From a virus (taxonomy: Duplodnaviria > Heunggongvirae > Uroviricota > Caudoviricetes): DNA of 14,573 nt. The stretch lies in the IMG/VR virus record IMGVR_UViG_2645727715_000004; one strand, written 5' to 3'. Of this stretch, positions 1-14,573 are shown in pieces. Within the stretch, counting starts at the first letter, position 1. Each line of letters begins with the position of its first letter. A program made the translations under genes and the position numbers. The notes beneath the pieces are model-generated. The model saw nothing but the letters and a program-made list of their open reading frames with translations, ran no database searches and was not told where the DNA came from.

Positions 1-320
1 ATATCCGGAGTAATCCATGCATCGTATAGACACGAAAACCGCGCAGAAGGATAAGTTCGGCGCGGGTAAGAACGGTTTTACCCGTGGTAACCCCCAGATC
101 GGCACGCCTGCCACCGATCTGGATGATGACTACTTTGACATGTTGCAGGAGGAGCTTTGCAGCGTTGTGGAGGCGTCCGGTGCCAGCCTGGAGAAGGGGC
201 GGCACGACCAGCTACTTACCGCGCTTCGCGCGCTGCTGTTAAGCCGCAAGAATCCGTTTGGCGATATCAAATCGGATGGCACGGTGAAAACGGCTCTCGA
301 AAACCTTGGTTTGGGAGAAG
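1..320. repeat. Left arm of a 320-bp perfect inverted repeat; carries the RBS and first 101 codons of the tail-fibre gene; outer end coincides with the window edge
   Basis: Reverse complement of 2194..2513 checked base by base at both ends and over 1..114; ORF-track translations at 17..445(+) and 1697..2497(-) are identical for 101 aa. Identity ends at 320/2194. Confidence 0.95.
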
Positions 321-681
321 CGGCAAAACGGGATGTGGGTAACGGGCAAAACCAAATTCCTGATATGTCAGCGTGGGAGTGTGGGGGAGATACAACGACG
401 GGATGGAGGCGAAGCCGGATGGTTATATTGAACAATGGGGGCTAACTGGGGCCACAACAAATGAAGTTTTGATTAATTTTCCTATCCCATTTCCGACAGC
501 CGTCATTTCTATTAATGAACATGACCAGGCTCCTGTGGCAGGGAAAATGTCAGTATGGCAATTCTATAAATTGACTAACTCAAATGTCATAGCAGAGAAC
601 CTGGGATCTCTTGATAAAGGAAATCCATCCTTCAATGTTCCAACTGTCGCTGGTTGCCGCTGGTTTGCTACAGGAAGATAA
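17..681 (+). CDS. Alternative tail fibre protein (S'-like): shared 101-aa N-terminus plus a distinct C-terminal domain; reading frame interrupted by an apparent 1-nt deletion somewhere in 364..445
   Basis: ORF 17..445 shares its N-terminus with the minus-strand fibre; ORF 373..681 (frame open from 364) continues in the -1 frame with a plausible fibre-tip sequence; SD GGAG 7 nt upstream of the ATG at 17; stop TAA 679..681 immediately before the Tfa' start. Confidence 0.6.
294..319 (+). other. Candidate serine-invertase crossover site (hix/gix/cix-like), left copy
   Basis: CTCTCGAAAACC-TT-GGTTTGGGAGAA: 12-bp imperfect half-sites around a 2-bp core with the AAACC/GGTTT core of Hin/Gin/Cin/Pin sites (compare hixL TTCTTGAAAACCAAGGTTTTTGATAA, from memory). 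Lies at the inner boundary of the repeat. Confidence 0.55.
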
Positions 682-682
682 A

Positions 683-1123
683 ATGAGTAAATATCTTTAC
701 GATGCTAAAACTAATATGTTTTACCCATTTACTCTGGAAAGTCAGTATAAGGAGTCTGGGTTATGGCCTCATAATGGAGTTGAAGTTGATGAGGATATAT
801 TTATTAAGTACCTGTCCCCACCTCCAGGGAAGGTGAGAGTTGCGGGTGATGATGGCTATCCTGCATGGGATGACGTACCGCCGCTAACTCATGAAGAACA
901 ACTGTCAGAAGCGGAACGAAAAAAACAGACACTCATAAATCGAGTTAATGAATATATTAACAGTAAGCAGTGGCCAGGAAAGGCTGCTATTGGTCGTCTG
1001 AAAGGTGAGGAACTGGCGCAATATAATTCATGGCTTAATTATCTGGACGCACTGGAAATGGTTGATATTTCCAGTGCTCCAGATATTGAATGGCCTACGC
1101 CTCCGGCTGTTCAGGCCAGATGA
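683..1123 (+). CDS. Tail fibre assembly protein (Tfa/U'-like chaperone) for the alternative fibre
   Basis: ATG at 683, two nt after the fibre stop; N-terminus MSKYLYDAKTNMFYPF and C-terminal motif SAPDIEWP are typical of the enterobacterial phage Tfa family. The 611 start of the ORF track overlaps the fibre frame and is rejected. Confidence 0.75.
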   Translation: MSKYLYDAKTNMFYPFTLESQYKESGLWPHNGVEVDEDIFIKYLSPPPGKVRVAGDDGYPAWDDVPPLTHEEQLSEAERKKQTLINRVNEYINSKQWPGKAAIGRLKGEELAQYNSWLNYLDALEMVDISSAPDIEWPTPPAVQAR

Positions 1124-1697
1124 TATCCGGCGCGGTGCTGGTATCTGTTGCCGTCACCGCGTCAATGTAATCCAGCACGGCGTTAAGTCGGGTTGTTTCT
1201 GCCTGCGTCAGCTTCCGCCCGGCCTGCAATTTCAGTTGAATCAGACTGATGGAAGCCATTGCAGCATCAATCAGCGACTGGCGCTGTGCTTCTGCCGCTT
1301 CTACTGCGGCGCTATGCTGTGCCTCGGTATCCGTCACCCATTTCTCACCATCCCATTTATCGTATGGCGTTAACGGGGCGATAGTGGTTGTATTTTCAGG
1401 ATAATCACCCGGAGCTGTGATTTCTTTCGATTCTCCTGTTTCGGTGCTATAGATGATTTCACCGCGATGGTCTGGCACATATTCCCATGAGTTAAAATCT
1501 GCAGAACGGCAGATTGCATAACCAGCTTTATGTGTAACTGGTGCATCTAAACAAGAACATGCCGGGATACCGACGCCAACCGCAAGATATTCAGTTGATG
1601 TGGAAATATATTCCCGCGTTTCACCATCATAATTATAAATGGTAATGACTCCCGCTTTTATGGCAATGAGTTCGTTATTTAATACGGCTTTATTCAT
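1095..1697 (-). CDS. Tail fibre assembly protein (Tfa/U-like chaperone)
   Basis: 200-aa ORF directly downstream of the fibre gene; C-terminal motif DTSTAPDIIWPEQP resembles the conserved Tfa C-terminus of E. coli prophage TfaE/TfaR-type proteins (from memory). Confidence 0.8.
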   Translation of the reverse strand: MNKAVLNNELIAIKAGVITIYNYDGETREYISTSTEYLAVGVGIPACSCLDAPVTHKAGYAICRSADFNSWEYVPDHRGEIIYSTETGESKEITAPGDYPENTTTIAPLTPYDKWDGEKWVTDTEAQHSAAVEAAEAQRQSLIDAAMASISLIQLKLQAGRKLTQAETTRLNAVLDYIDAVTATDTSTAPDIIWPEQPEA

Positions 1698-2497
1698 CAG
1701 GCAGCCCTCACGATATAATTAAAGGCAATGTTACGAGGACGGTTTTCGTTTGCAGTTGGAACAATTCTTGAAGCATCAAGGCCAATCACTTTTGGGTAAA
1801 CAGCGCCATCTGTTCTTTCTGTCACCATACTTCTGATTAAGGAGAAATAACTATTGTTCGTTGAGGGGTTCAAAGGCACTACTGCCCCCTTAAACGAGCC
1901 TACTGATTCCCATATTGAATAATTTTCGGTGTTTACAGTCTTGAACTCACCATAGATATTACGTATGGCATCGCCCTGAGCGGATAATATTGCCCTCCCC
2001 GTATCCATACCACGTCCGTCATCCCAGCCACGAATAAACTCACCACGTAAATCAGGCAATTTATTTGTCGGGTAAGCCTTTGCCAGCTCCGGGTATTCTT
2101 CAGCAGAAAAAGCTGCTCCGTTGCATTTCAGCCAGCCTGTTGGCGGAGTGGCTGAAGGCCACGGAACAGGCACCCCAACAGGTAATGCAGAGCCTTCTCC
2201 CAAACCAAGGTTTTCGAGAGCCGTTTTCACCGTGCCATCCGATTTGATATCGCCAAACGGATTCTTGCGGCTTAACAGCAGCGCGCGAAGCGCGGTAAGT
2301 AGCTGGTCGTGCCGCCCCTTCTCCAGGCTGGCACCGGACGCCTCCACAACGCTGCAAAGCTCCTCCTGCAACATGTCAAAGTAGTCATCATCCAGATCGG
2401 TGGCAGGCGTGCCGATCTGGGGGTTACCACGGGTAAAACCGTTCTTACCCGCGCCGAACTTATCCTTCTGCGCGGTTTTCGTGTCTATACGATGCAT
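1697..2497 (-). CDS. Tail fibre protein (S-like), currently operon-linked orientation
   Basis: 266-aa ORF; constant N-terminus of 101 aa inside the repeat, then a [22 protein letters not shown] collar-like segment and C-terminal tip; start overlaps the gp48-like stop. Confidence 0.85.
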
Positions 2498-2513
2498 GGA
2501 TTACTCCGGATAT
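2194..2513. repeat. Right arm of the 320-bp inverted repeat; the operon-proximal tail-fibre 5' end plus the last 16 nt of the upstream gp48-like gene
   Basis: Exact reverse complement of 1..320; at 2514 it continues into gp48-like coding sequence that is unique in the window. Confidence 0.95.
2195..2220 (-). other. Candidate serine-invertase crossover site, right copy in inverted orientation
   Basis: Reverse complement of 2195..2220 is identical to 294..319. Confidence 0.55.
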
Positions 2514-3085
2514 TTAAAAATTACGTAGGTATGCGACGGGCAGAGTTTGTTAAGCACACATTCGACAACTGTGTCGCCCCAGATACGCAGTGCGGAATCA
2601 CAGGGATCGCCACATGTCATCCAGGTGGTGTTGGTGGCGGCTGGCATGTTGACCTGCCAGTAATACCGCCATTCAGGCGCGTTCACAGCGTCAGTACAGG
2701 CCGATGAGCAGGTGAACGTGCTTTTGTCGTATCGCGTGATGGTGGCATCTGGTCTGCCCAGGGCAGCAAGCTGTGCAAGATAAAAATCCTCGTTGATGCC
2801 GCCCGCCAGGTTAACCTTCGCATCCAGCCGTTGCTGACGCTGGCGAAGGGTCTGTGTCCCTGCGGGAATACATTCATCCGGCAGACCGCACAGACGCTCC
2901 CAGCGGTTTATCAGTTCAGTGGTGGTGCGCGGATCCAGCTCCCGCATCAGGGCATCCGCACGCTGATGAACGCGGGTTAATGACGGTGCCGCACCGGCAA
3001 TCGCCGGATCGCTGGCTGACCACGCCGGACCGGGGGGCAACAGTGCCGACAACAGACGGATGTAATCATCGTTTGTCACGTCCAT
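2501..3085 (-). CDS. Baseplate/tail protein, Mu gp48-like (P2 gpI-like family)
   Basis: 194-aa ORF in the conserved position between the J-like baseplate gene and the fibre; start overlaps the upstream gene's stop. Confidence 0.65.
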
Positions 3086-4134
3086 GAAATCGTCCCCAGT
3101 ACCGCCAGTTCATTTTTTGCAATGGAGATATTGTCTGCCGGTGCAAGCAACTGATGGCTGTATTCCCCGTTCGCACCGGAAATCGCCTCACTGATACGCG
3201 ATACCTTCAGTTCTCCCTGCGGATAACCATCACGCAGCAGGAACGAACGCAACTCCGCGGTGATGGCAGCCCGTATTTCCGGTGTGTCTGGCGTTACGCG
3301 GATATGAAAATCCACCGTATGCGCCACCGGCCTGAACACATACAAATCAGAGCCTGCCACCGGGGCCAGTGGCTCAATGTGTTGTCTTGCCGCCGTTTCC
3401 GTTGATTCTTCCGGAATGGGATTAATCAGGTCACTGCTGGCAATCATCACACCGACAGTTCCCGTTCCCATCCAGTGACGGTATGTCCATGCGCGGGTAA
3501 TGCCGGGCACTTCTTTAGCCCAGACGACATAGTCCCCGTCAGCCCCGCCCTGAGGCGTCCAGTAATACCGCTCAATGACGCGGGCGCGCCACGTTTCCAG
3601 ATCTTCAGTATCGAATCCGCCAGTCAGGGTATCTGCAACACCGGAAGACGGCAGACCATTCACCGGCGTGACCAGGATTAATGCCGTACCGTCGTCAGCG
3701 TTACCGACCGCGCCTGCACTTGAGCAAGTGATCGGCACGCGCAGGACACCACCGGAGCTGGTTGCATCAGCAGTTGCCGTGTATTGAACCAGGTCAGCGC
3801 GCTGAATCACGCTCCCGGCGGTCACCTTCAGGCCATCGCTGACACCTTCCCAGCGCATATACCCGCTGGCAGCCGTGGCCCCCTTGCGCGGACACCGTTT
3901 CATCGCAGCATGTCGCGCCAGCCAGGACGCATCGCACAGGTCAGGCAGCATGTTCATTGCCAGATAATCGATGTACCCGTAAACCGTATGCAGCGCCGCC
4001 GCATACACCTTTGCCCGCACGTCTTCATCCATGCGCCGGAGCGTGTCGCTGACGTCCAGCCTGGCGAATAAATCGTTACGGAGCATACTGATATTTTCTG
4101 CCAGCGTCGGGCGCTGAAATTCACTGTCCGCCAT
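3076..4134 (-). CDS. Baseplate J-like protein (Mu gp47-like)
   Basis: 352-aa ORF; size and position match the baseplate wedge J family in Mu-like tail modules. Confidence 0.75.
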
Positions 4135-4550
4135 GCGTTATCGCACTCCACAGATCATCAAAAGAAATCATTACCGGTCCGTCACGACGCCAGAGGGTGA
4201 TACTGTTACCCAGCTCATTAATCCCGGTGCGGCGGATATCCAGATCAATACGGGACACCACGCCGTCATCAGTCATCCATTGGAGGCATTCGCGGATATA
4301 CCCCCTTACTGTCTGCACCAGCTGATTGGTCAGTTTGCTGCGCTGAAGCAGCCACAGTCGGGAGCCGTAACGGTCATTCTGTCACCGCAGGCCAGGTATC
4401 CCCCCACCATCCCATCGGGACGTCGGCGTTGTCATCAGGCTCCGCCCGCCGCCAGGTAAACAGGGAAATCACCACGGCGCGGGTCAGCGGATCCAGCGGT
4501 GCGCTGGCGCAGGTGCGTTTACCGTTCACCGTCAGCCACAGTTCCATCAT
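4121..4550 (-). CDS. Baseplate protein, Mu gp46-like (gp25/GPW-like), interrupted by a frameshift near 4374..4382
   Basis: ATG at 4550 opens a 58-codon frame ending TGA at about 4376; the +1 frame continues (QNDRYGSRLWLLQRSKLTNQLVQTVRGY...) to the stop at 4121. Combined length about 143 aa matches the family. Confidence 0.55.
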
Positions 4551-5095
4551 GCCTCCATCGCTTTATCAGGTTTGTCGGTGTTACTGCCCTGACCGTTCTC
4601 TCTGTGACGATGCCCGTTATAGGCAAGCCGCATCGCTGACATGGTAGTGCCGCCGGAGTCGCACAGGTCTTTCACCTGTCCGGTCACTTCCAGGTCCATT
4701 TCAAAACGTGCTTCAGGTGCATTGCGAAACGTGATCGTTTTCCCTGCACCGTCCACCACGATCCCTTCCCGGGTCAGTGTCACGGACTGCCCCTGATCGT
4801 CATAGACAGCCACCTCCCCCGTCTGCAGCCCTTTCAGGCGGTAGCGCCGGTCCGACACCGTAACAACCACCGCATGAGAACGGTCGCCATCCGGAAACAA
4901 CACCACCGCTTCCGCACCGCTGTTTGCCCTTGCGGTAAAACCGTAGGGTTCAAGATGCTCAACCCTGGCTTTGGGTTCACCGGCAATCAGGGACACATCC
5001 ACGGTCTGACATTTCGTGGCGGCACTGATGCTTTTCACCACTGCCCGCCCAATCAGGCCGAGGAGTTGTCGCTGCATGGCTTCAATCGTCCTCAT
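4547..5095 (-). CDS. Baseplate assembly protein V-like / spike (Mu gp45-like)
   Basis: 182-aa ORF; start overlaps the P-like stop (ATGA); size and position fit the gpV family. Confidence 0.75.
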   Translation of the reverse strand: MRTIEAMQRQLLGLIGRAVVKSISAATKCQTVDVSLIAGEPKARVEHLEPYGFTARANSGAEAVVLFPDGDRSHAVVVTVSDRRYRLKGLQTGEVAVYDDQGQSVTLTREGIVVDGAGKTITFRNAPEARFEMDLEVTGQVKDLCDSGGTTMSAMRLAYNGHRHRENGQGSNTDKPDKAMEA

Positions 5096-6174
5096 CAGAA
5101 CGGGTCCTCCTGTACTCTGGCTTTTTTCTTTTTCCGCGCACCGGGATCTTCGGGTTCAGGCAGATAAGCATCAGGCGGGCCGACACGGATTTCCGTCAGG
5201 GTGCCGTTCTGGTCCTGAGTAAACGTGACTTCCGAGACAAGCAGTTCGGTATTGTCGAAACCACAGACCGGATCGAAGACAATCACCCGCTGGTTGGGCT
5301 GCCACAGCGTACCGTTACCCTGTCGCCAGCCCTGCACCACATAGGTGGTTTCATCCGTCCGCGCCGCCCGTTGTCGGGCTTCAAAGTCAGCACGGGCAAT
5401 ACAGCCTGCCCCCGTGGCCTGCCCTGTCTGCCTGATATACATCGGACGGTAACGGGCAATAAATGCGTCCTCTGTGCGGGCCCGCAGCGCGGTGGTGGTG
5501 GCCTCACCGAAATCATCGTCGTTTCCGGCACGCTGCCCCGCCACCTGGTAAACAGAAAACCGCTCCCGGATACTCTTCTCCGTATCGCAGGAAAGGATGT
5601 TTTCCCCAAGTACCAGCGCGGTATGTGCCCGCGTTGAGCCAATACCGCCAATCACCAGCCTGCCGTGCGGGTCGTCGTAAGCCAGCGCCTGCTGCTGACC
5701 GAGTATTTTGTTGATCACCTCAATCACCGTTTCACCGTGATCAGGCTGGACATCAGGAATAACACCAGACGGCGCACCGCTGTTCACCACCTCAATGCCG
5801 AAAGGCGCAGCAAGCGCCTGCGCAATCTGAACCAGCGATCGTCCGTTAAACTGTGTCGGTTCGGCTGCACAGTCAATCAGGTCAGCGGTCAGACTACGCC
5901 CAGCAATACCGGTGCTGACCGAACGGGCATCGTAACGAACGGGAGTCGCCTCCACCCAGCCGGTGATCACCAGCTCATCACCAATCAGCACTTCCACTTT
6001 TGAACCGTTTTTAATACGCGGCTGAAGCGTGGTGATACCCTCATCTCCCGGCCACTGGCGGGTGATCTCCACACTGAAATCCCGCGTCAGCCGTTCAATA
6101 CCGGCACCGATGCGCACCGATGTCCAGCCATTCCACTCCCGGCCATTTACCCGTAGCGTGACGTTATCATTCAT
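5095..6174 (-). CDS. Tail protein, Mu P-like (P2 gpD-like baseplate hub)
   Basis: 359-aa ORF, N-terminus MNDNVTLRVNGREWNGWTSVRIG typical of Mu P / gpD-like tail proteins; follows the N-like gene as in Mu. Confidence 0.75.
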   Translation of the reverse strand: MNDNVTLRVNGREWNGWTSVRIGAGIERLTRDFSVEITRQWPGDEGITTLQPRIKNGSKVEVLIGDELVITGWVEATPVRYDARSVSTGIAGRSLTADLIDCAAEPTQFNGRSLVQIAQALAAPFGIEVVNSGAPSGVIPDVQPDHGETVIEVINKILGQQQALAYDDPHGRLVIGGIGSTRAHTALVLGENILSCDTEKSIRERFSVYQVAGQRAGNDDDFGEATTTALRARTEDAFIARYRPMYIRQTGQATGAGCIARADFEARQRAARTDETTYVVQGWRQGNGTLWQPNQRVIVFDPVCGFDNTELLVSEVTFTQDQNGTLTEIRVGPPDAYLPEPEDPGARKKKKARVQEDPF

Positions 6175-7499
6175 AGCACTGGCACCTTCAGAGGGATCAC
6201 CGGCACAAAGCCGGGATGCGTAATGGCATTACGCCGGATAATGTCCGCGTCACGCGCCGCGTTATCAAACCAGGTCGCCGCCAGCACCAGCGCGGGTAAG
6301 ACCTCATCCGGCGTGCGCTGAATGATCCGTGCAGACTGTTCAAGGCGCGTGTTGATATCCGCATTCAGATCTGCTTTCACCCGGCGCAGCGCCAGAAACA
6401 GCGCATCACTGGTTGTACGGGACAACTCCTTATCAATTGCCGTATTCAGTGTGTCGCGAATGTCAGTCAGTTCTTCCCACGTCGGCAGGTCAACCGTGTT
6501 TTTCACCGCCGGTGCATTGTTCAGTGCCGGATGCGTGACGGAAGGCCAGCCGGTGCTCTGCGCGGGTGTTGTTGACTGCCCCACTGCGGCATTCTGCATC
6601 ACCGCGGAAATTGTTGGCGCAGGCAATCGGGTGATGGCATACGCCGCTTCGCTGATTGCGGTCGTACGAAGGGTGCTGGCAACCACGTTACGCTGCTGCG
6701 TTGCCGTGGCGGTGGTTTTACTGTCCGTTTTCCAGACGCCGCGCGGTTGCAGATCGCTGCCGAGGCTGACACCAGAAAGCGTTTTGATCATGGTGACCAG
6801 GTCGCTGGCGTTACCATAAAGGCGCTTCCCGGTACGCCACATTTTCTGCACCTGCTCAACGAAATTTTTTCCTGACGATGGCGGCGGCAGAAGTACCGAG
6901 ATATCCCCCTGCAACAGCCTGGCGGCATCCGATACGGCAGAATCCACCACTTTCATCGCATCAGAAACATACCCCAGCATTGTGCTGGCATTACCGATAA
7001 CGTCGTTCTGTACGAAACCCGCCACGCCATCGATACTGAAACCACTGAAGCTGTCACTGATGCAGTCATCCAGCGCAGAACAGGATGACATCAGCGTCTG
7101 CGCCGTCGCCGCGCCTGATGTGGGGTAAGAGAGTTCTCCCGCTTCGACAAACTTCAGGTCAAAGCGGACAATACGCCCTTCACTCTTCGATGTGCTGACC
7201 CGAACTTCCCCGTCAACACAGACTTTCAGCTCACCGTATGTCGGGTGGACAAGCATGCCGGGACCGGGTTTATTCAGCGCTTCAATCAGGCGATCGCGCT
7301 GGTCAAAGCAGTCATCTCCCACCACATAAGCCGTGATGGACGGGCGGAAAGTGATTTTCCCCAGGTCTTCGGTATAGGGTTTGTCGCGGTTCGGGTATTC
7401 GTGTGTTTCCACACGACGACCGGTTCCCGCACTTTCTTCTTCAACCTTAAACGGCACACCGCGAAATGACGCGTCCTGAAGTCTGTCTTTCCACGTCAT
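6171..7499 (-). CDS. DNA circularisation protein N-like (Mu gpN family)
   Basis: N-terminus MTWKDRLQDASFRGVPFKVEEES is characteristic of Mu N-like proteins. Start placed at the ATG at 7499 rather than the 7541 start of the ORF track, which would run into the terminator hairpin. Confidence 0.8.
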   Translation of the reverse strand: MTWKDRLQDASFRGVPFKVEEESAGTGRRVETHEYPNRDKPYTEDLGKITFRPSITAYVVGDDCFDQRDRLIEALNKPGPGMLVHPTYGELKVCVDGEVRVSTSKSEGRIVRFDLKFVEAGELSYPTSGAATAQTLMSSCSALDDCISDSFSGFSIDGVAGFVQNDVIGNASTMLGYVSDAMKVVDSAVSDAARLLQGDISVLLPPPSSGKNFVEQVQKMWRTGKRLYGNASDLVTMIKTLSGVSLGSDLQPRGVWKTDSKTTATATQQRNVVASTLRTTAISEAAYAITRLPAPTISAVMQNAAVGQSTTPAQSTGWPSVTHPALNNAPAVKNTVDLPTWEELTDIRDTLNTAIDKELSRTTSDALFLALRRVKADLNADINTRLEQSARIIQRTPDEVLPALVLAATWFDNAARDADIIRRNAITHPGFVPVIPLKVPVL

Positions 7500-7514
7500 A
7501 TAAACTCCGTACAT

Positions 7515-7536
7515 AAAAAATCCCACCGGAGTGGGA
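7515..7536 (-). terminator. Possible weak intrinsic terminator / attenuator between tape measure and N-like gene
   Basis: On the minus strand: 6-bp stem TCCCAC/GTGGGA with 4-nt loop, followed directly by TTTTTT (plus-strand A-run 7515..7520), in a 60-bp intergenic gap. Confidence 0.4.
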
Positions 7537-7559
7537 CTCATTAACAGATTAATTTTTCA

Positions 7560-9393
7560 TTACCTGCCAAAGCGCGTATAGCCAACATCATGGCTGACAT
7601 CAAAACCGCTGGATCGCGTTTCCATAACCCGCATACCCGGAGGCGAATTCACAAAAGAGACCTTGATCTCACCATCAACTTTTGGCGCAGAAGCTTTGTT
7701 AATCATGAAGGGATTCGGGCCTGTGGCATCGGAGGCGTTGTTTGATTGAGCCGGATCTACCGCCGGATAAGGTGTGTATCCCCGCGCCGGTATTCCCGTC
7801 CCATAAGCATCATAAGCACCCGCGCCCCACTGCGCAGAGTTAATGGCATCGACCGTGTCACCGGAACTGTCGGTAAACCACTCAATAATTGGCTTCAGCT
7901 TGTCCCACATATCCTGAAACCACTTAACAACCGGTCCCCAGTTATTGATCACTATCCCCAGCGGCGACCAGGCAAAAACCTTCTTAAGAAGTTCCCAGCC
8001 AGCCTCAAAATAAGGACCAATGGTTTCCCAGAGTTTCTTAAAATAAGGTCCGACAACATCCCAGTTAGTGATAATTAATCCCGCAGCCAGGCTATCGCCG
8101 TCGCAATCATGCCAATCGGCGTCATCGACATAATCCTGCTGACAATACTGATGGCACCGCCAACGCCCATCAATCCCAGTTTCAGAATCGCAAGACCGGC
8201 AGCAAGCCCGACGACGCCGCGAATAACCCGGGGATTTTCATCCGCAAACTTCGTGAATTTTTCCCCTAACTCCCCCAGCCATTGCGTGATATTTTTGGCG
8301 TCACCAGAAAATGCGCCGCCAATAGCCGCAAGGCCGTTAGTTGCGGTCCCCGTCATTGCCTCCCACAGGTTGGACAGCGTTCCAAGCTGGGCCTGAACAC
8401 GTTTATTCAGGCTGGCCTGTTTATTCATCTTCTGCTGGATCTGATCGTAGCCATCCTTTCCTTTATCGATTAGTGCATTGACCACCTGAAGGGTTTCGGC
8501 ATCATCACCAAATATTGCCTTAAGTACACCTGTTCGCTTAACGTCTGTCAGTTTTCGCAGCTTTGCCAGTTGCTTAAACATGTTATCAAGACCGCCAAAA
8601 CTCCCTTTGCCGTCAGTAAAATCGAGCTGCACTCCGAGTTTCTGGCGGGCCATGACTTTATTGACGTCCCTGATTTTCTTAACGCTTAATCCGGACTGGA
8701 TAACTTTTCGCAGGGCATTACCTGCCGACTCCCCGTTCATCCCCATCTGATCCATCATGACGCTGATAGGGGCAAGGCTCTGTGCAGCCTGAAGTCCGTC
8801 CTTATTCACCATCTTCAGAACAGAACTGGTTTTAGTGAAGAAGGACAACATGTTGGTATCGTCAACGCCCAGATAAAACGCCTTCTGGATAGTGTCGAAC
8901 AGCCCCATCATGTCTTCTGACGCCGTTCCGGTAGCATCCTGCATCTTTGCAGCAAACTCAGCAGCCGCTTCCGGTGTTTTTTTCAGTTGTACCGCAAGAT
9001 AAGCTGTCGCTTTACCCACACCACCAAGAATGTTTTCTGCCGGGATCCCTGACGCACCAGCATCTGCATCATGTTCTGGAAATCAGCCGTTGTACCGGGT
9101 AGCTGGTTACCCAGGCCAATAGCCAGTTTATTGATGTCCTGAAAGCTCTTTCCAACCTCGCCGTTCGCATCCATCATAGCGACTTTCAGCCCGGTGGCGG
9201 CGTTTTCCTGATCAGCATAAGATTTCAGGGAAAGCGTCAGACCCGCTGCCAGTCCGCCACCAAGCGCCAGCCCACCCTGTGACGCTTCTTCCGCCTGGCG
9301 TTTAAATCCCCGGATTTTCTTTTGCATTTTCGACAGCGCGGGAGAAAGCCTGTCGACACCGGTGATCAACGCCTTAAGCTCAAATTCAGCCAT
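7560..9393 (-). CDS. Tail tape measure protein, interrupted by two apparent 1-nt deletions (about 9042..9054 and 8071..8080)
   Basis: Three consecutive minus-strand ORFs (8983..9393, 8075..9019, 7560..7952) form one roughly 612-codon reading frame if one base is restored at each junction (VRQG|IPAENILGG and WLRD|LIITNW). Shows the hydrophobic segment and W-rich C-terminal repeats typical of tape measure proteins. Confidence 0.7.
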
Positions 9394-9804
9394 GTGTGCG
9401 TTTCTCCTGCTCTATCCTGTTTGCCTGACTGACCAGCAAGGGAATTTCACTGATCGGCATATTCAGCAATTCGAAGGGATTAATGCGCCAGTAGCTGGCG
9501 CAGTCAAAGAAGCGATCAGTGAGGTATTCAGCCGTCAGGCCTGGAGGAAAAAACCAGCCACAAGCCACGCCGCTGCATTCAGGTCTGCCGGAGACATCTG
9601 GTCGACAGAGCTTTGCGGCACTTTCGCCAGCCGCACAATGTATTTCGACACCACATGCGCCAGAAGTCTGACGGACTCATCCTGATTCATCTGGTAGGGA
9701 TACCCCAGCTCGCGGACATCCTTCCCGGTGGGCTCATCAAACTCCAGTACGGAGAGTGTCTCACCATGAGCGATAATCGGTTTCTTTAACTCAAGCTCTT
9801 TCAT
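9386..9804 (-). CDS. Tail assembly chaperone frameshift fusion product (gpGT / gpE+E' analogue) made by programmed -1 ribosomal frameshift
   Basis: The -1 frame ORF 9386..9568 overlaps the 3' end of the chaperone ORF and ends 8 nt inside the tape measure start; slippery heptamer T_TTT_TTC lies in the overlap. Confidence 0.65.
9535..9804 (-). CDS. Tail assembly chaperone (lambda gpG / P2 gpE analogue)
   Basis: 89-aa ORF between tube and tape measure genes; carries the slippery site at its 3' end. Confidence 0.75.
   Translation of the reverse strand: MKELELKKPIIAHGETLSVLEFDEPTGKDVRELGYPYQMNQDESVRLLAHVVSKYIVRLAKVPQSSVDQMSPADLNAAAWLVAGFFLQA
9547..9553 (-). other. Slippery heptamer T TTT TTC for the programmed -1 frameshift
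   Basis: Minus-strand codons GGT TTT TTC in the zero frame; plus-strand gaaaaaa at 9547..9553. Confidence 0.6.
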
Positions 9805-10160
9805 TACTGGTAATCCCCTTCTTCACCGTGGAACTCAAGATCAACCGTGCCTTCTTCGGCATTATGGTTCGCTTCTCCGTGCAGCCAGGCGGACGACAAT
9901 ACATAGACCTGACCGTTCGCCAGCTCGGCAGTGATAGTCATCTCATCAGACGAGGTGATTTTGTTCACCGGAAAATTCTTCGGCACCTTGAAAGTCCCTT
10001 TGACATAAGGCGCACGGTGAGTTTCCTTGCGGTCCACTGAACCGTCCAGGCCGATGATGTCATCATTGACCGTCCTGTTCATGGGCACCTCAATGCCGCC
10101 GGTCAGCGATAGCTGTTGACCGTCAATTTTGAAATAACAGGTTCCCCCGATACGGGCCAT
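9804..10160 (-). CDS. Tail tube protein (Mu gpM-like)
   Basis: 118-aa ORF immediately downstream of the sheath gene, start overlapping the sheath stop. Confidence 0.75.
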   Translation of the reverse strand: MARIGGTCYFKIDGQQLSLTGGIEVPMNRTVNDDIIGLDGSVDRKETHRAPYVKGTFKVPKNFPVNKITSSDEMTITAELANGQVYVLSSAWLHGEANHNAEEGTVDLEFHGEEGDYQ

Positions 10161-11656
10161 TATGCAGACTCCTCTGAATACTGAAGACGGAACTGGTTAA
10201 CCACGGCAAAGACACGCAACTGGTTAACATAGTCAGGCGGGAACAGCGTGTTCAGGCGGTTCGGATCGCTGGCATCACGCTCCACAACCAGGTACTGCTT
10301 AAACAGTTCGTAGTTTTCCACGATCCCCGCACGCTCAAGCTGACGGTAGGTTGCCAGCAGTTCCCCTTTGATCACCGCCGGTGTGACAATCGCCTGACCG
10401 GGACCAAAGCGGGTACCGTCGCTGGCAAGCTTGTGACGCCCGTACTTACTGGTAATGACGGATTTCAGTTTGCGCAGTACATACGCGCTGGTATGCAGCG
10501 TCTCGCTGTCGAGGTAGCTGTTATCCGCAACACCGTAAGCGTTTTTCCTGTACGTGGTGACATCACGCTGAATGCGCAGCACCCCGCTTTCGACATACGC
10601 CGTTGCCACGCCATGAGACAGCAGGGTCTGTTGTTCGGTCATCGTGAACCGTTTCCCCTTCGGCGCAGGCAGCATACCCACCAGTTCACCGGTCTGCGTG
10701 GGACGTGCCGGATCGTTGCGAATAAACACCGCTGCGCGGGCGGTACGGCTTGCCGCCAGCTCGTCGGCAGGCGTCTGGGTCTCTTTTTCGTATCCCGCCA
10801 GGGTAATGTGCTGCTGGTTAAACTGGTCACCTGCGGTCACCAGTTCTGACAGCGTGCCGGTCTTTGCCGTATACACATGACCATACAGCTGACGCGCATA
10901 GCTCCAGCGACCGCTGGTATCGTTCATCTCGGTCACCAGCGTGTTAACGGAGGCCGTGTCGTTGAACGGCAGGCCGATATAATCAAACGGCTCATCCGCC
11001 ATTGCAGCCACCGCGCCGGTGAGAACCGGAGCGCCCGTTCCGGCGATCCCCGTCGCCACGGCAATCTGTACGCCCGCTGGCAGCACTTCGCCCCCACCAA
11101 AGCCGTAGTAATTGAGGCTGACAGGAATTTCATTCCCGCAAAGCCCCTTATGACGCGCGGTCAGTGTGACCACGCCTGCCGAAGATGAGGCAGTAAACGG
11201 CAGGGTCGGAACGGCATTGATGGCATCTTTGATACTGCTGGCAATCGTCGCGACGTTATCGCCGTTGGTCACCGGTGCCTGCACGCGGGTACGTCCCACA
11301 TAAACATTCACCGTGCCGGTTTCGGTTGCCGCGCCGGTCACCGTCAGCGTAACTGTTGCCGCCGCGCCCGTGGATTCAGGAACGGCAATCACATACAGTT
11401 CACCAAACGGGTCGGTCTGGCGATAAGCCTCGACCATACGCGCCAGCTGACTTCCCGCACCACAAATCTGGCGTGCATAGTCTGCCGATGGCATCAGCAC
11501 CAGACTGTTGGCAACAATCTCTGCACCGTTATTGGCATGACCAATCAGCAGCGATGCTCCGCTGTCCTGTGCAGTATTCGCCGCCGAGTTATCCATTTCC
11601 GCATAAAAAATCGGAACCAGCGTATTCGACGGAATGGTGTTAAAGCTTATCGTCAT
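10160..11656 (-). CDS. Contractile tail sheath protein (Mu gpL-like)
   Basis: 498-aa ORF, N-terminus MTISFNTIPSNTLVPIFYAEMDNS typical of Mu-like sheath proteins; followed by tube and chaperone genes. Confidence 0.85.
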   Translation of the reverse strand: MTISFNTIPSNTLVPIFYAEMDNSAANTAQDSGASLLIGHANNGAEIVANSLVLMPSADYARQICGAGSQLARMVEAYRQTDPFGELYVIAVPESTGAAATVTLTVTGAATETGTVNVYVGRTRVQAPVTNGDNVATIASSIKDAINAVPTLPFTASSSAGVVTLTARHKGLCGNEIPVSLNYYGFGGGEVLPAGVQIAVATGIAGTGAPVLTGAVAAMADEPFDYIGLPFNDTASVNTLVTEMNDTSGRWSYARQLYGHVYTAKTGTLSELVTAGDQFNQQHITLAGYEKETQTPADELAASRTARAAVFIRNDPARPTQTGELVGMLPAPKGKRFTMTEQQTLLSHGVATAYVESGVLRIQRDVTTYRKNAYGVADNSYLDSETLHTSAYVLRKLKSVITSKYGRHKLASDGTRFGPGQAIVTPAVIKGELLATYRQLERAGIVENYELFKQYLVVERDASDPNRLNTLFPPDYVNQLRVFAVVNQFRLQYSEESA

Positions 11657-11810
11657 CGGTATTCACCTTTTCATTCACGCGCCGGATATCACCCGCTGCT
11701 TCACGGCGCAGCCAGTAGTTGTTCTCATCAACATTTCGCCCCTCGGCGGGCAAAAGGTCGCCGCGGGCAGGGTCAGGCACTGACCGCCCTTTAACAGGTT
11801 TCACAAACAT
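11640..11810 (-). CDS. Small ORF (56 aa) upstream of and overlapping the sheath start; not in the supplied ORF track
   Basis: Hand translation: ATG at 11810 nine nt after the preceding gene's stop, MFVKPVKGRSVPDPARGDLLPAEGRNVDENNYWLRREAAGDIRRVNEKVNTDDDKL, stop TAA 11640..11642. Fills the otherwise empty 160-bp gap. Confidence 0.45.
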   Translation of the reverse strand: MFVKPVKGRSVPDPARGDLLPAEGRNVDENNYWLRREAAGDIRRVNEKVNTDDDKL

Positions 11811-11818
11811 GAAGATTC

Positions 11819-12379
11819 TCAGGAAGGAAGGGTTATTTCGGTGTGATGTTCGATATCGCCGTCAGGCCCGTTACCGGGATCGAGATAATCAACATCAATC
11901 GCCAGCGTTCGCAGTTCATCCAGACTGTTCAGGTCATCCTGCTGGCGGGTATCGTCTTCGGTCAGCTCGCTGATGACCGAAAAATCGAACTGATAAATCA
12001 GCTCATGACGATTCAGATCCAGCAGCGTGCCGCCGTCATAGGTAATCGGGTTACCGCACGCTTCCGGGTTCCAGCCCAGCAGGGCCTTAAAGAGCATCTG
12101 CCGGACATCGTCCACCACATCATACGAAGCAAACTGACCGCGCTCATCACGCCCGTTACTCAGTATGACAACCACGGAGAAGCCCTCTTTCAGCTCCTGC
12201 CAGTAGTCGGTCTGGCTTTTGTTTTCTCCCGGAGAATCATCACCCGGTACAACATATGCCGCCGGGAGTTTCAGCTTTCCGACCTCCGGCAGATTTTTGA
12301 ACTGGGCCGCGCCTGCAACCCGGTTTTCAAAATACGGACAGCGGGCACGCAGTGCAGCAATAACAGGCGTCAGTTTCAT
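11819..12379 (-). CDS. Putative neck / tail-completion (tail terminator-like) protein
   Basis: 186-aa ORF between the gp10-like neck gene and the sheath; function assigned by position only. Confidence 0.45.
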   Translation of the reverse strand: MKLTPVIAALRARCPYFENRVAGAAQFKNLPEVGKLKLPAAYVVPGDDSPGENKSQTDYWQELKEGFSVVVILSNGRDERGQFASYDVVDDVRQMLFKALLGWNPEACGNPITYDGGTLLDLNRHELIYQFDFSVISELTEDDTRQQDDLNSLDELRTLAIDVDYLDPGNGPDGDIEHHTEITLPS

Positions 12380-12881
12380 CTGTGTCGTCGCTCCGGCTTC
12401 AGTGATTTACGCAATTCCCGCGCCAGAAAATAGCGTGTCCAGCTGCGGTTCTTTTCAAGCGTTTCCACCATGAAGTTATTACGTGGAGCCAGTCGCCAGC
12501 CGCTGCCACCGGATGCACCACGATGATGGCTGCGACGACGCTTTGCCCCTCGCCTCACGCCATAGAACAAAAAAGCCGGATAAAAATCACCGGTGATACG
12601 GCGGTTTCCCTCTCCATTACGCTGGTTAGGGGCTATACGTGCCATAAAACCAGGGCGATGTTTACTGGCTCTGGGTACCATGTAACCAATCGAACGAGCC
12701 AGGCGTCCGGTCTGATAACCGGGGTTTTCACCCGGTGCCGACCGCGCACGGCGCATCACCAGCGACGGGCATCACGCATATGACGCTGACCAATCGTGAC
12801 AAACGCCCGCCGGACACGGGCGCGGTTAAAGCGCATCTCCGCGGGCTGCTGAAAATCAACGTGCAAAAAGGAAGTCGTCAT
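12376..12881 (-). CDS. HK97 gp10-family head-tail joining protein, interrupted by an apparent 1-nt deletion near 12757..12766
   Basis: ATG at 12881 gives MTTSFLHVDFQQPAEMRFNRARVRRAFVTIGQRHMRDARRW then stop; the -1 frame continues as VMRRARSAPGENPGYQTGRLARS... to 12376. Restoring one base makes one roughly 168-aa protein. Confidence 0.55.
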
Positions 12882-13266
12882 TGTTGCCTCCGTGACTCTG
12901 CCCACATTCGCCCAGCTCCGTACACTCCAGCAGCAGAAAGCGCCGCGCCCCGTTCAGATCGCGCTGACGTTTCACCCGGTACACACTGTCACCGCAGACC
13001 ACCTCATAATCAGCGGTGATCCCCCGGCGGTAACGAATGGTGATGTAATGGGTGATGGCGTCCCCGGTCTGCGCGGTTTCCTGCCAGGTGGTGGCACTGG
13101 TCTGGATAACCTTCGCCCATGTCCGGAACGTAACCGGGTATTGAGGCTCCACGCCAAAGTTATCCGCGGGCATATCCACCCGCTGGCGGATCAGGACGCG
13201 TTTATTCAGTTCACCGGGGTCCGGCAGAATGTAGGTTGCGCTGGTCTGCGCCTGACGAATTTTCAT
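12856..13266 (-). CDS. Head closure / head-tail adaptor protein
   Basis: 136-aa ORF following the connector gene with overlapping start/stop; size and position fit. Confidence 0.6.
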   Translation of the reverse strand: MKIRQAQTSATYILPDPGELNKRVLIRQRVDMPADNFGVEPQYPVTFRTWAKVIQTSATTWQETAQTGDAITHYITIRYRRGITADYEVVCGDSVYRVKRQRDLNGARRFLLLECTELGECGQSHGGNNDDFLFAR

Positions 13267-13586
13267 TGCGGAAAGTACCTGTACGGGCCGACAAGCCAGC
13301 CAAAACTCTGCGGCATGTCGAGTTTCTCCACTTCCGTAACCGACGAGCGGTTTTCGTAAAAATGGCTGATAAGCATCAGCATCCCCAGACGAATATCATC
13401 CGGCAGGTGCAGCCCGTCCGGATCGCTGTCCGGAATGGTTTCATCCGGTGCATAGAGCTTCCGGTTCAGATACGTTTCCGTCCGCTTTTGTGCCGCACAG
13501 GCCAGCAGTTGCAGATGGCGGTCATCAGCATCGAAATCCTCATCCAGCCGGAGTTGGGCTTTAATCTCTTCCATTGTCAGAAGCAT
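13263..13586 (-). CDS. Head-tail connector protein (HK97 gp6-like)
   Basis: 107-aa acidic ORF, MLLTMEEIKAQLRLDEDFDADDRHLQLL..., typical of gp6-like connector proteins; conserved position after the capsid gene. Confidence 0.65.
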   Translation of the reverse strand: MLLTMEEIKAQLRLDEDFDADDRHLQLLACAAQKRTETYLNRKLYAPDETIPDSDPDGLHLPDDIRLGMLMLISHFYENRSSVTEVEKLDMPQSFGWLVGPYRYFPQ

Positions 13587-13588
13587 AC

Positions 13589-13789
13589 TCAGCCCTCTTT
13601 ACTGGTCGTGGCTTTTTTCTCTTTTGCCGCTTTACTGCTTTTTGCACTGATTCCGCGCTCTGCTAACCCGGCCTGAAGTGCAATCTCCTGCACCCGGGCA
13701 GGAAGCGCCCCGTCGTCATACTCACCGGCCCGAATGACCTCAACACGCATACCGTCCGGTGACCATTTCAGATCTTGTTTCAGGATCAT
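13589..13789 (-). CDS. Hypothetical small phage protein (66 aa, lysine-rich C-terminus)
   Basis: ORF with SD-like GGTGAAG upstream of ATG at 13789; sits between capsid and connector genes. Confidence 0.45.
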   Translation of the reverse strand: MILKQDLKWSPDGMRVEVIRAGEYDDGALPARVQEIALQAGLAERGISAKSSKAAKEKKATTSKEG

Positions 13790-13811
13790 GATTCTTCACC
13801 CGTCAGAACAG

Positions 13812-13831
13812 GGGGCGCGGTTCCGCGCCCC
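13812..13831 (-). terminator. GC-rich hairpin just after the major capsid gene; possible attenuator or RNA-stability element
   Basis: 9-bp GC stem GGGGCGCGG/CCGCGCCCC (13812..13820 / 13823..13831) in the 49-bp gap after the capsid stop; no clear U-tract on the minus strand. Confidence 0.35.
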
Positions 13832-13838
13832 TGAGTGA

Positions 13839-14573
13839 TTACGCCGCTGCAATCTTCAGCAGTTTGATGGCCTGCGAATCGACCAGCATCCCGCCGGTGC
13901 GCTTGGTGGTATAAAAACCGACAAACGGTTTATTGGTGTACGGGTCACGCAGAATGCGGGTGCCGATACGGTCAACGATGGTGTAACCCCGTTTGAAGTT
14001 ACCAAATGCAATGGCTTTCGCATCAGCGGCGATATCCGGCATCTGTTCGTTTTCAGCGATACCGTAACCCGCCAGAGAGGACGGCTGCCCCAGTTCCAGC
14101 CCCGGACGCCACAGATAGTTACCCTCGGTGTCTTTCAGCAGACGGATGGCAAACAGGCTGTTGTTGTTCATCATGAACTTCGCGCCAGTGCGGTGTGCCT
14201 TACGCAGCGTGTAAATCAGTTTGATAATGGCGTCTGCGGTCACCGCGGTCGCTTCGCCGGATACAATATGCTGAAGTTTGCCGAACGCCCGGACCTTATC
14301 GGTTTCATCAGTAGATTCATACGCCAGGAACCCTTTTGGCTTCTTGGTACCATCGCCGGTGGTAAAGGCAATTTCTTCCTGTTCGGCAAATTCGGTCGCC
14401 AGCTCGCTGTTGATCCAGGCCTCCACGTTGAAGAAGGCATCGTCCAGCATTTTCTGGGTAGCCTGCGGGTTGCCGTAGATTTCCCCCATGAGAGGTTCAA
14501 TCAGCTCCAGTCTGGAGGTGGCAGTCTGGGATCGCGTATCCGTTACCCCCACCCATCCGGAAGCCGTACCGCC
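13839..14573 (-). CDS. Major capsid protein, HK97 family (5'-truncated; continues beyond the right edge)
   Basis: C-terminal region shows the GNFKRGYTIVDR and RILRDPYT type motifs of HK97-fold capsid proteins; the frame stays open upstream of the listed M to base 14573. Confidence 0.85.
   Translation of the reverse strand, partial: GGTASGWVGVTDTRSQTATSRLELIEPLMGEIYGNPQATQKMLDDAFFNVEAWINSELATEFAEQEEIAFTTGDGTKKPKGFLAYESTDETDKVRAFGKLQHIVSGEATAVTADAIIKLIYTLRKAHRTGAKFMMNNNSLFAIRLLKDTEGNYLWRPGLELGQPSSLAGYGIAENEQMPDIAADAKAIAFGNFKRGYTIVDRIGTRILRDPYTNKPFVGFYTTKRTGGMLVDSQAIKLLKIAAA

Follow-up and report, generated by a model that had tools for sequence, protein, structure and literature searches.

Invertible tail-fibre segments, mosaic fibre genes and the exchange of host-range cassettes have been textbook matter since the 1980s and 1990s. 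In the G segment of phage Mu (inverted by Gin) and the C segment of P1 (inverted by Cin), a constant 5' part of the fibre gene lies outside the invertible DNA, while two alternative 3' parts lie inside it together with their cognate assembly genes. Serine invertases of the Din family act at 26-bp sites with a 2-bp core, and the P1 C segment also carries inverted repeats of 0.6 kb. A further described system is the P segment of the e14 element of E. coli K-12, with its invertase PinE (gene order ymfQ-stfP-tfaP / tfaE-stfE-pinE), which inverts and is found with mixed orientations in cultures (PMC4272514; PMC12529663).

The stretch of DNA analysed here (the window) corresponds to contig LEKZ01000190 in its full length of 14,573 bp, from the draft genome of E. 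coli D92/09, assembled from Ion Torrent reads of 400-bp fragments of an overnight culture (16.5x coverage, 343 contigs). It belongs to an SfV-like prophage with a Mu-like tail and an HK97-like head. We are highly confident that the locus at its left side is a Pin switch of the e14 P-segment type, placed at the end of the prophage late operon, and that its AT-rich interior is the exchangeable payload of this switch. Gene order and crossover-site sequence are those of e14, and in both the site splits the fibre gene identically and two convergent chaperone genes stand in the middle of the segment. The ymfQ gene and the constant fibre part are 97% identical between the two, the segment between the 16-nt repeats measures 1,871 nt here and 1,797 nt in e14, and e14 shows a similar dip in GC content (0.36-0.50 inside vs 0.56 upstream). 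They differ in that the expressed cassette shares only 88% identity with e14 tfaE/stfE and has an unrelated tip (1748-1997), in that the contig holds a complete tail and head operon and e14 a remnant, and in that the contig lacks the invertase. The principle is also that of the Mu G and P1 C segments, although the fibres here are short (266 and ~221 aa) and long repeats of the P1 type are unsupported.

Genes and crossover sites of the invertible segment

The features of the switch and its surroundings are as follows.

1-293, plus strand: copy of the fibre 5' part, comprising the last 10 coding bases and stop of the ymfQ-like gene, a spacer and fibre codons 1-92 (the constant part, Sc), reverse-complemented
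17-681, plus strand: silent (off-orientation) fibre gene, made of the Sc copy and a gp53-like C-terminal receptor-binding domain (Pfam PF21882 Gp53-like_C, E = 1.6e-12)
294-319, plus strand: left 26-bp crossover site, CTCTCGAAAACC-TT-GGTTTGGGAGAA, core TT at 306-307
683-1123, plus strand: silent tail-fibre assembly chaperone, 146 aa (Pfam PF02413 Caudo_TAP, E = 6e-34; PHROG 188)
1095-1697, minus strand: expressed tail-fibre assembly chaperone, 200 aa (Pfam Caudo_TAP, E = 1.4e-33; Caudo_TAP_N plus Caudo_TAP; PHROG 105, E = 4.7e-99)
1697-2497, minus strand: expressed tail-fibre gene, 266 aa (constant residues 1-96, collar domain, variable tip)
1748-2002, minus strand: distal tip sub-cassette of the expressed fibre, swapped independently of the remaining cassette
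2195-2220, plus strand: right 26-bp crossover site, TTCTCCCAAACC-AA-GGTTTTCGAGAG, core AA at 2207-2208
2501-3085, minus strand: YmfQ / Mu gp48-like baseplate wedge gene (Pfam PF10076, E = 9.4e-27; PHROG 203), ~97% identical to SfV

The YmfQ-like gene is the last backbone gene ahead of the fibre gene; a Baseplate_J domain is also among the Pfam matches. In the expressed fibre the crossover site encodes the peptide ALENLGLGE at residues 93-101, followed by a collar domain (Pfam PF07484) at 108-155, and PHROG profiles hit the N- and C-terminal parts of the protein separately. The two chaperones score 117.4 and 116.3 bits against Caudo_TAP (PF02413), for a gathering cut-off of 22.1, and their genes converge, the 3' end of the expressed one overlapping the silent one by 29 nt. 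The silent chaperone has an ATG at 683; the mechanical ORF begins at 611. Proteins of this class bind the fibre through a variable N-terminal domain and conserve the C-terminal domain (PMC9608196).

A C is missing at 415, which breaks the silent fibre gene into two ORFs (17-445 and 373-681); this 1-nt deletion is evident against three related prophages: those of E. coli W12-1 (L001) and MIN10 (L002), and the 99.9%-identical relative L004. An intact homologue of 221 aa is expressed beside ymfQ in MIN10. Six probable single-base indel errors are found within the 14.5 kb of the contig, and homopolymer errors of the Ion Torrent reads are the probable cause of the split ORFs; if the frameshift at 415 were real, the flipped state would give a truncated fibre.

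The crossover sites, of the e14/pix type, were located by alignment. Positions 306-321 agree with the published e14 P-segment repeat TTGGTTTGGGAGAAGG at 15 of 16 bases, positions 2193-2208 match the other published repeat CCTTCTCCCAAACCAA at all 16, and the sites are common to e14 (L007), W12-1, MIN10 and L004. With up to 3 mismatches allowed, the window has no match to the Mu gix consensus. The homology boundaries fall on the same sites: on the left, similarity to the pin-side junction of W12-1 and L004 begins at the core, and on the right, identity to a Salmonella Peduovirus stops 3-4 nt past the core. The prophages of W12-1 and MIN10, which are complete genomes, are of the same type with the segment flipped, with pinE adjacent and an inverted repeat of only 20 nt. 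Upon inversion the outer half-sites remain with their flanks, and both fibre fusions are in frame through ...ALENLGLGE.

The late operon is read leftwards on the minus strand, from the ymfQ-like gene into fibre residues 1-96 (the constant 5' part) and on into whichever cassette is joined at the site. In the contig this is the collar-domain fibre C-terminus with its chaperone (2206 down to 1095), and the alternative cassette, a gp53-like tip with its own chaperone (308-1123), lies inverted and silent. A Pin-family serine invertase would cut at the central AA/TT (306-307 and 2207-2208) and flip the segment of ~1.9 kb, thereby swapping the receptor-binding tips. The contig, which extends just 293 nt beyond the left site, carries no invertase gene; in relatives, pinE stands directly beside the crossover site. 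In L004 the adjacent pin is shortened to a remnant of 42 codons, and inversion here may therefore rely on an invertase encoded elsewhere.

The 320-nt arms and the left end of the contig

The initial annotation took the arms flanking the interior for the repeats of the invertible segment and described them as GC-rich. Their richness in GC is confirmed (0.556 for 1-320 and 2194-2513), but they are not the inversion repeats, which are the 26-bp sites at 294-319 and 2195-2220. Most of the arm sequence is backbone, namely the constant part of the fibre gene, together with its duplicate at the contig end.

One could read them instead as a real perfect inverted repeat of 320 nt or longer, in which case the strain would have the fibre 5' part twice in full, and the P1 C segment, where long inverted repeats are known, would be the model. 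The arms would on this reading belong to the structure of the switch itself and might in addition permit RecA-dependent inversion, and they are indeed 100% complementary over 320 nt (1-293 to 2221-2513 among them). However, the left arm ends precisely where the contig, and with it the window, ends, and both arms have their crossover site at the inner end. Outside the left site, L004, L001, L002, e14, L008 and L009 all have pin-side sequence and a repeat of only 20 nt; in L004 and L001 this sequence replaces 1-293. Moreover, both outer half-sites of the window are of the ymfQ-side type, and the reads come from 400-bp fragments of an overnight culture, in which segments of the e14 type are known to be mixed. 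The backbone is present in 957 E. coli genomes (at least 80% coverage), and the exact left end in none of them. The long-repeat architecture of the P1 C-segment type thus failed on the position of the sites, on the relatives without a left arm and on the arm being cut by the contig end, and we consider it very improbable.

Positions 1-293 are probably the junction of the flipped orientation, or of a subpopulation carrying it, rather than a true second copy. The ymfQ-side junction at both ends of the window would fit a mixed culture, and such mixed junctions suggest that the segment was flipping in the culture that was sequenced. We infer that inversion takes place in D92/09 itself, presumably by an invertase of the Pin family.

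Base composition of the cassettes and the backbone

Two AT-rich stretches within the interior, at 440-1000 and 1380-1990, had been noticed by eye against GC-rich arms, tail genes and head genes. Quantification bears this out. GC content is 0.419 and 0.417 in the two stretches and 0.448 over the span 400-1990, against 0.559 in the backbone (2514-14573). Among ~1,150 backbone sliding windows of 561 or 611 nt (mean 0.558, sd 0.031) none falls below 0.480, so that both blocks lie ~4.5 sd under the backbone mean and outside its entire range. Milder dips occur in the backbone at the 200-nt scale, with a minimum of 0.435 at 8401-8600. Maximum-likelihood segmentation of 1-4000 placed change points at ~420, ~1090, ~1340-1380 and ~1960-2130. 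By BIC, one change point (2130) and two (420 and 2130) were nearly equally favoured; a central GC-rich island improved the likelihood but not the BIC. The compositional blocks correspond to the following parts of the genes.

420-1090, left AT-rich block, GC 0.415: gp53-like tip domain and the entire silent chaperone
1095-1379, minus strand, GC-rich island, GC 0.568 and GC3 0.60: conserved C-terminal (Caudo_TAP) domain of the expressed chaperone
1380-1990, right AT-rich block, GC 0.417: fibre-specific N-terminal domain of the expressed chaperone and fibre tip

Two separate AT-rich stretches were seen because the island between them is GC-rich. Just inside each crossover site, over ~110-190 nt (320-439 and 2003-2194), GC is ~0.53.

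The difference is concentrated at third codon positions, with GC1 and GC2 far less different, which ruled out amino-acid composition as the source of the AT-richness. GC3 is 0.32 in the silent fibre tip, 0.33 in the silent chaperone, 0.30 in the N-terminal domain of the expressed chaperone and 0.41 in the expressed fibre tip. The constant fibre 5' part reaches 0.68, and the backbone averages 0.622 +/- 0.051 (211 windows of 100 codons), so that the cassettes stand at z = -4.3 to -6.3. Base composition is thus non-uniform across the window, also at third codon positions (GC3 0.30-0.41 in the cassettes vs 0.62 in the backbone). The earlier description of the chaperones as AT-rich applies to the silent one throughout and to the N-terminal domain of the expressed one, but not to the GC-rich C-terminal domain of the latter. 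Unlike this counterpart, the conserved C-terminal domain of the silent chaperone is AT-rich (GC3 0.32), and a general rule by which conserved parts are GC-rich and variable parts AT-rich was discarded on this account.

A compositional break of this kind might be expected from an assembly chimera, in which unrelated AT-rich DNA was misjoined to a GC-rich prophage contig, and the assembly is a low-quality draft (with the coverage, contig number and indel errors given above). However, complete E. coli chromosomes (W12-1, MIN10 and K-12 with e14) have the same arrangement and the same junctions on uninterrupted sequence, and it recurs in the independent assembly L004 at 99.9% identity. Since complete genomes share the structure, we rejected a chimeric interior, to which we assign next to no probability.

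Exchange of the cassettes between phages

It had been proposed from the composition that the receptor-binding domains and chaperones were acquired as cassettes, by horizontal exchange, onto a conserved N-terminal scaffold. The scaffold is readily recognized. SfV, SfI, SfII and SfIV match the window at ~97% over 2194-4200, starting at the crossover site and taking in the baseplate genes, and none of them matches past the site. This family shares the fibre N-terminus and the LENLGLGE motif, right after which its GC content drops; SfV has a single fibre and a single chaperone followed by O-antigen conversion genes, without second cassette or invertase.

Comparing the two C-terminal halves separately gave different nearest relatives, as predicted: a Salmonella Peduovirus for one and an E. 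coli SfV-like prophage for the other. The expressed cassette (fibre C-terminus and chaperone) is 100% identical to Peduovirus MET_P1_103_31 over 1301-2211, and nothing in that phage matches the window beyond 2219. MET_P1_103_31 is P2-like; it encodes hin, has an invertible fibre segment and carries the cassette in the same relative place beside the invertase. Its backbone and flanks are unrelated, its fibre is of 445 aa with an N-terminus of the P2 H type, and its outer half-site reads GGTATGCGAGAA. With stf/tfa of the lambdoid siphovirus HK97, a side tail fibre system, the cassette shares 71-98% identity (91-98% in the chaperone and collar parts), with the crossover half-site motif at the same place in stf. 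HK97 differs in lacking an inversion system, in virion type and in its distal tip (1780-1955 unmatched).

A P2-like E. coli prophage has the expressed fibre tip at 100% identity, and a 97-kb plasmid has it at 93%. Over 1748-2002 identity is 100% in MET_P1_103_31 and in the P2-like prophage of CFSAN051542, and this tip occurs in 154 E. coli genomes; in W12-1, e14 and HK97 it has no match, though both of its flanks do. The silent cassette is 99-100% identical to the E. coli SfV-like prophage over 301-1100. None of 50,697 phage records matched its gp53-like tip domain at the DNA level, and the best full-length protein match of the domain is 38%. Going from 1300 to 1000, identity to the Peduovirus falls from 100% through 97% to 90% while E. 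coli W12-1 becomes closer (92% to 99%), and on this gradient 1095-1379 is probably where homologous recombination joined the two cassettes. Near-identical cassettes on unrelated backbones, with sharp homology boundaries, are the pattern of exchanged cassettes; it is this pattern of sequence identity that demonstrates the exchange, and composition by itself is no proof of it.

The same GC dip over tip and chaperone cassettes is found in e14, SfV, the Peduovirus and HK97. In the favoured explanation, each cassette comes from a pool of host-range modules, which become joined to unrelated phage backbones at the crossover-site motif and inside the conserved chaperone C-terminal domain. The modules retain their own low synonymous GC (GC3 0.30-0.41) on any backbone and are therefore conspicuous against the present one of 56% GC. 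The AT-richness of the pool may reflect a low-GC origin or AT-biased drift, between which composition does not discriminate, all the backbones compared having AT-rich cassettes; AT-richness alone names no donor.

The AT-richness might also have arisen in place, through mutational bias and relaxed codon selection in fast-evolving, weakly expressed tip and chaperone genes, so that composition would reflect a local evolutionary regime and not a foreign origin. The shift lies nearly all at synonymous sites, none of the backbones with AT-rich cassettes (e14, SfV, Peduovirus, HK97) resembles a compositionally matched donor, and the host GC of 50.47% is intermediate between cassettes and backbone. 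This explanation could account for an AT-rich pool but not for the arrival of these cassettes on this backbone, and it is at odds with ~900 nt that are 100% identical to a P2-like phage of unrelated flanks and sharply bounded at the crossover core. We therefore think it unlikely, and retain horizontal exchange of the cassettes.

The invertase itself may move cassettes between phages, with Pin-family enzymes acting across the sites of co-resident prophages (SfV-like, P2-like, P1-like, lambdoid), a possibility that we put forward tentatively and think less probable than its contrary. It would agree with the end of Peduovirus identity 3-4 nt or less from the core dinucleotide, and with the half-site retained in fibres that no longer invert (SfV orf21, HK97 stf). 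The idea is an old one (Sandmeier 1994, as cited in PMC3945230), and fibre genes are described as exchanged horizontally among unrelated phages, probably driven by invertases (PMC3945230). If it is true, the 26-bp site encoding LENLGLGE would be a portable cassette-capture site.

The AT-rich interior is thus a correct observation but an ordinary one, its biology being already known, and its discovery value is small, as E. coli K-12 shows the same GC dip in its own e14. The locus illustrates how compositional, mosaic and domain boundaries (fibre tip and chaperone N-terminal domain) coincide, which is useful in host-range engineering. Its main practical value lies in annotation, where the 320-nt "inverted repeat" of the contig should not be taken for the repeat of the switch.

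Base composition of the segment and the genes around it

The segment carries an expressed cassette (collar-domain fibre C-terminus plus chaperone) and, inverted, a silent one (gp53-like tip plus its own chaperone), in a gene order like that of e14 of E. coli K-12 (ymfQ-stfP-tfaP / tfaE-stfE-pinE):

17-681, plus: second fibre gene, gp53-like C-terminal domain, frameshift at 415
683-1123, plus: second Caudo_TAP chaperone
1095-1697, minus: Caudo_TAP chaperone, 200 aa
1697-2497, minus: fibre gene with collar domain, 266 aa

The chaperone genes converge and share 29 nt at their 3' ends (1095-1123), and the C-terminal peptides of the proteins are alike (...SSAPDIEWPTPPAVQAR and ...STAPDIIWPEQPEA). 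From 2513 rightwards all real genes lie on the minus strand and make up the tail and head operon of an SfV-like prophage. Pfam matches there include Mu gp48/YmfQ and Baseplate_J, with precomputed hits to Mu gp45, gp46, GpP-like, DNA circulation and tape-measure families, and the sheath, tube, major capsid protein and HK97-family prohead protease are taken from the annotation of an E. coli prophage 98.2% identical. The window has six single-base indels (415, 4383, 8090, 9047, 12763 and 13828) with respect to relatives 98-99.9% identical, most of them within G or C runs. The genes they interrupt include the silent fibre gene, the tape-measure gene (8075-9019 / 8983-9393) and the gp46-like gene (4121-4318 / 4374-4550); with a 16.5x Ion Torrent draft as the source, the probable cause is homopolymer error and not prophage decay.

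The initial annotation described an AT-rich interior between GC-rich arms and GC-rich tail and head genes, and sliding-window and codon-position analyses agree with it, the composition being far from uniform. GC is 0.419 at 440-1000, 0.417 at 1380-1990 and 0.448 over the full span 400-1990, against 0.556 in the arms and 0.559 in the other 12,060 nt of the window. In windows of 561 or 611 nt the backbone averages a GC of 0.558 (sd 0.031) and never falls below 0.480, so that both blocks lie outside its entire range. Segmentation of 1-4000 by maximum likelihood gives change points at ~420, 1090, 1340-1380 and 1960-2130; BIC favours one (2130) or two (420 and 2130) near-equally, and the central GC-rich island raises the likelihood without improving BIC. 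Milder AT-rich patches (GC 0.435-0.49 in 200-nt windows) are found in the backbone at 7401-7700, 7901-8200 and 8401-8700, around the tape-measure and neighbouring tail genes.

GC at third codon positions (GC3)
Silent fibre tip: 0.32
Silent chaperone: 0.33
Expressed chaperone N-domain: 0.30
Expressed fibre tip: 0.41
Constant fibre 5' part: 0.68
Expressed chaperone C-domain: 0.60
Backbone, 100-codon windows: 0.622 +/- 0.051

The AT shift of the cassettes thus lies at synonymous sites. GC1 and GC2 differ far less than GC3 between cassettes and backbone, which rules out amino-acid composition as its cause. The host genome (GC 50.47%) falls between the two, with the backbone higher and the cassettes lower. 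Not all of the chaperone sequence is AT-rich: the silent chaperone and the N-domain of the expressed one are, but the C-domain of the latter is GC-rich. Since the C-terminal domain of the silent chaperone is AT-rich too (GC3 0.32), the GC-rich island is a trait of one cassette and not a rule.

Crossover sites and the left contig end

The same prophage type occurs in the complete E. coli genomes W12-1 and MIN10, where the segment points in opposite directions; in each genome pinE immediately adjoins it, and the inverted repeat measures just 20 nt. Aligned with the window, their homology switches at CTCTCGAAAACC-TT-GGTTTGGGAGAA (294-319, core 306-307), with a mirror site at 2195-2220 (core 2207-2208); compared with the published repeats of the e14 P segment, they agree in 15/16 and 16/16 bases, respectively. 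The outer half-sites remain with their flanks upon inversion, as expected if exchange occurs at the core. In its sites, its architecture and the occurrence of both orientations, the locus is an e14 P-segment-type member of the Gin/Cin/Pin/Hin fibre-switch family; its contig stops 293 nt beyond the left site and bears no invertase gene. The half-site TTCTCCCAAACC-AA-GGTTT, coding for LGLGE, is kept in the fibre genes of two phages that have neither invertase nor second cassette, SfV (orf21; L011 3003) and HK97 (stf; L006 3302).

The 320-nt perfect arms (1-320 and 2194-2513) were rejected as the switch repeats, given that the crossover sites lie at their inner ends. The ymfQ-side junction appears at both segment ends, and the pin-side junction is absent from the window.

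The window is the entire contig LEKZ01000190.1. Its first 293 nt repeat, in reverse, the constant fibre 5' part and the ymfQ stop region, where relatives have pin-side DNA; an independent assembly (L004), 99.9% identical over 301-4079, has the pin-side junction at this end. The backbone reaches a coverage of at least 80% in 957 E. coli genomes, but no genome has this left end at 80% coverage. An overnight culture was the starting material of the source assembly (E. coli D92/09), made at 16.5x with 400-bp Ion Torrent fragments, and mixed orientation of e14-type segments is known in such cultures (PMC4272514; PMC12529663). The left end resembles a read-length overhang derived from cells in the flipped state, and the junction of a flipped subpopulation is the most economical reading; a true long repeat at this locus is very improbable. 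If the left end does come from flipped cells, it would be indirect evidence of inversion in the sequenced culture.

Relatives of the two cassettes and the exchanged unit

Identity to the window of W12-1 (same backbone), Salmonella Peduovirus MET_P1_103_31 and HK97 stf/tfa
301-1100: W12-1 99-100%; Peduovirus no match below 860 except 81% over 301-367 beside the site, 72-80% at 860-1000; HK97 no match
1001-1300: W12-1 94-99%; Peduovirus 90-97%; HK97 91-98% from 1043
1301-1400: W12-1 92%; Peduovirus 100%; HK97 97%
1401-1747: W12-1 79-87%; Peduovirus 100%; HK97 96-98% to 1600, then 71-75% to 1779
1748-2002: W12-1 no match; Peduovirus 100%; HK97 no match over 1780-1955
2003-2211: W12-1 92-97%; Peduovirus 100%; HK97 78-94% over 1956-2221
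Beyond 2219: W12-1 94-99% to 2600; Peduovirus no match; HK97 no match

MET_P1_103_31, which is P2-like, has a hin gene and an invertible segment of its own, and HK97 is a siphovirus without an inversion system. The expressed tip alone (1698-2002) is present in 154 E. coli genomes; a 100% identical copy occupies the silent position of the invertible segment in a P2-like prophage, and there is a 93% identical copy in a multi-cassette region adjoining a recombinase on a 97-kb plasmid. On this plasmid, from E. coli EC-10 (L010 1-5644), a row of fibre C-terminal fragments, one of them the 93% copy, lies beside the recombinase, suggesting a multi-cassette invertible region. For the gp53-like tip, comparison with 50,697 phage records gave no DNA match, and the best full-length protein match is 38%.

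The two cassettes, compared separately, thus have their nearest relatives in different phage types. The N-terminal scaffold moves with the backbone, and SfV, SfI, SfII and SfIV are ~97% identical to the window over 2194-4200. Judged by nucleotide identity, the clean mosaic, with its abrupt loss of Peduovirus identity beyond 2219, is direct evidence of the horizontal exchange onto a conserved scaffold that had been proposed from composition.

One joint is the crossover site, where Peduovirus identity stops 3 nt past the core and SfV-family homology stops at 2194. The other falls at ~1100-1300, within the part of the expressed chaperone gene that codes for its GC-rich C-terminal domain; there, identity to one relative fades as identity to the other rises. 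These positions fit published chaperone structure-function work (PMC9608196), which describes a variable, fibre-binding N-terminal domain and a conserved C-terminal one; the AT-rich unit therefore consists of the fibre tip and the chaperone domain recognising it.

The invertase side and the shared cassette pool

Just beyond pin, defence-type cargo differs among relatives: mcrA in e14 (L007), a GmrSD-type gene in L004, and a GIY-YIG LEM-3-like gene with an ImmA/IrrE and HTH pair in W12-1 and MIN10. The position, at the end of the prophage, resembles a site of variable cargo. In L004 (3806-6015) the pin gene, lying between segment and cargo, is reduced to 42 codons; if D92/09 is similar, inversion would require an invertase encoded elsewhere, as PinQ of Qin acts for e14 (PMC12529663). 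In E. coli strain 1409, the closest complete-genome backbone (98.2%; L008 1656-4271), the fibre gene is broken by an IS66-family element and the adjoining recombinase is frameshifted, and the switch is decaying.

The AT-rich cassettes are a correct observation but already known biology: that unrelated phages exchange fibre genes horizontally, probably aided by associated invertases, is long established, and two papers (PMC3945230; PMC8986868) cite Haggard-Ljungquist 1992, Sandmeier 1992 and Sandmeier 1994 for it. The GC dip recurs in e14 (0.36-0.50 vs 0.56), SfV, Peduovirus and HK97, the cassettes being AT-rich on each backbone examined. Either a low-GC origin or AT-biased drift under weak codon selection could have made the pool AT-rich; the composition is a sign of a shared cassette pool and not of a particular donor.
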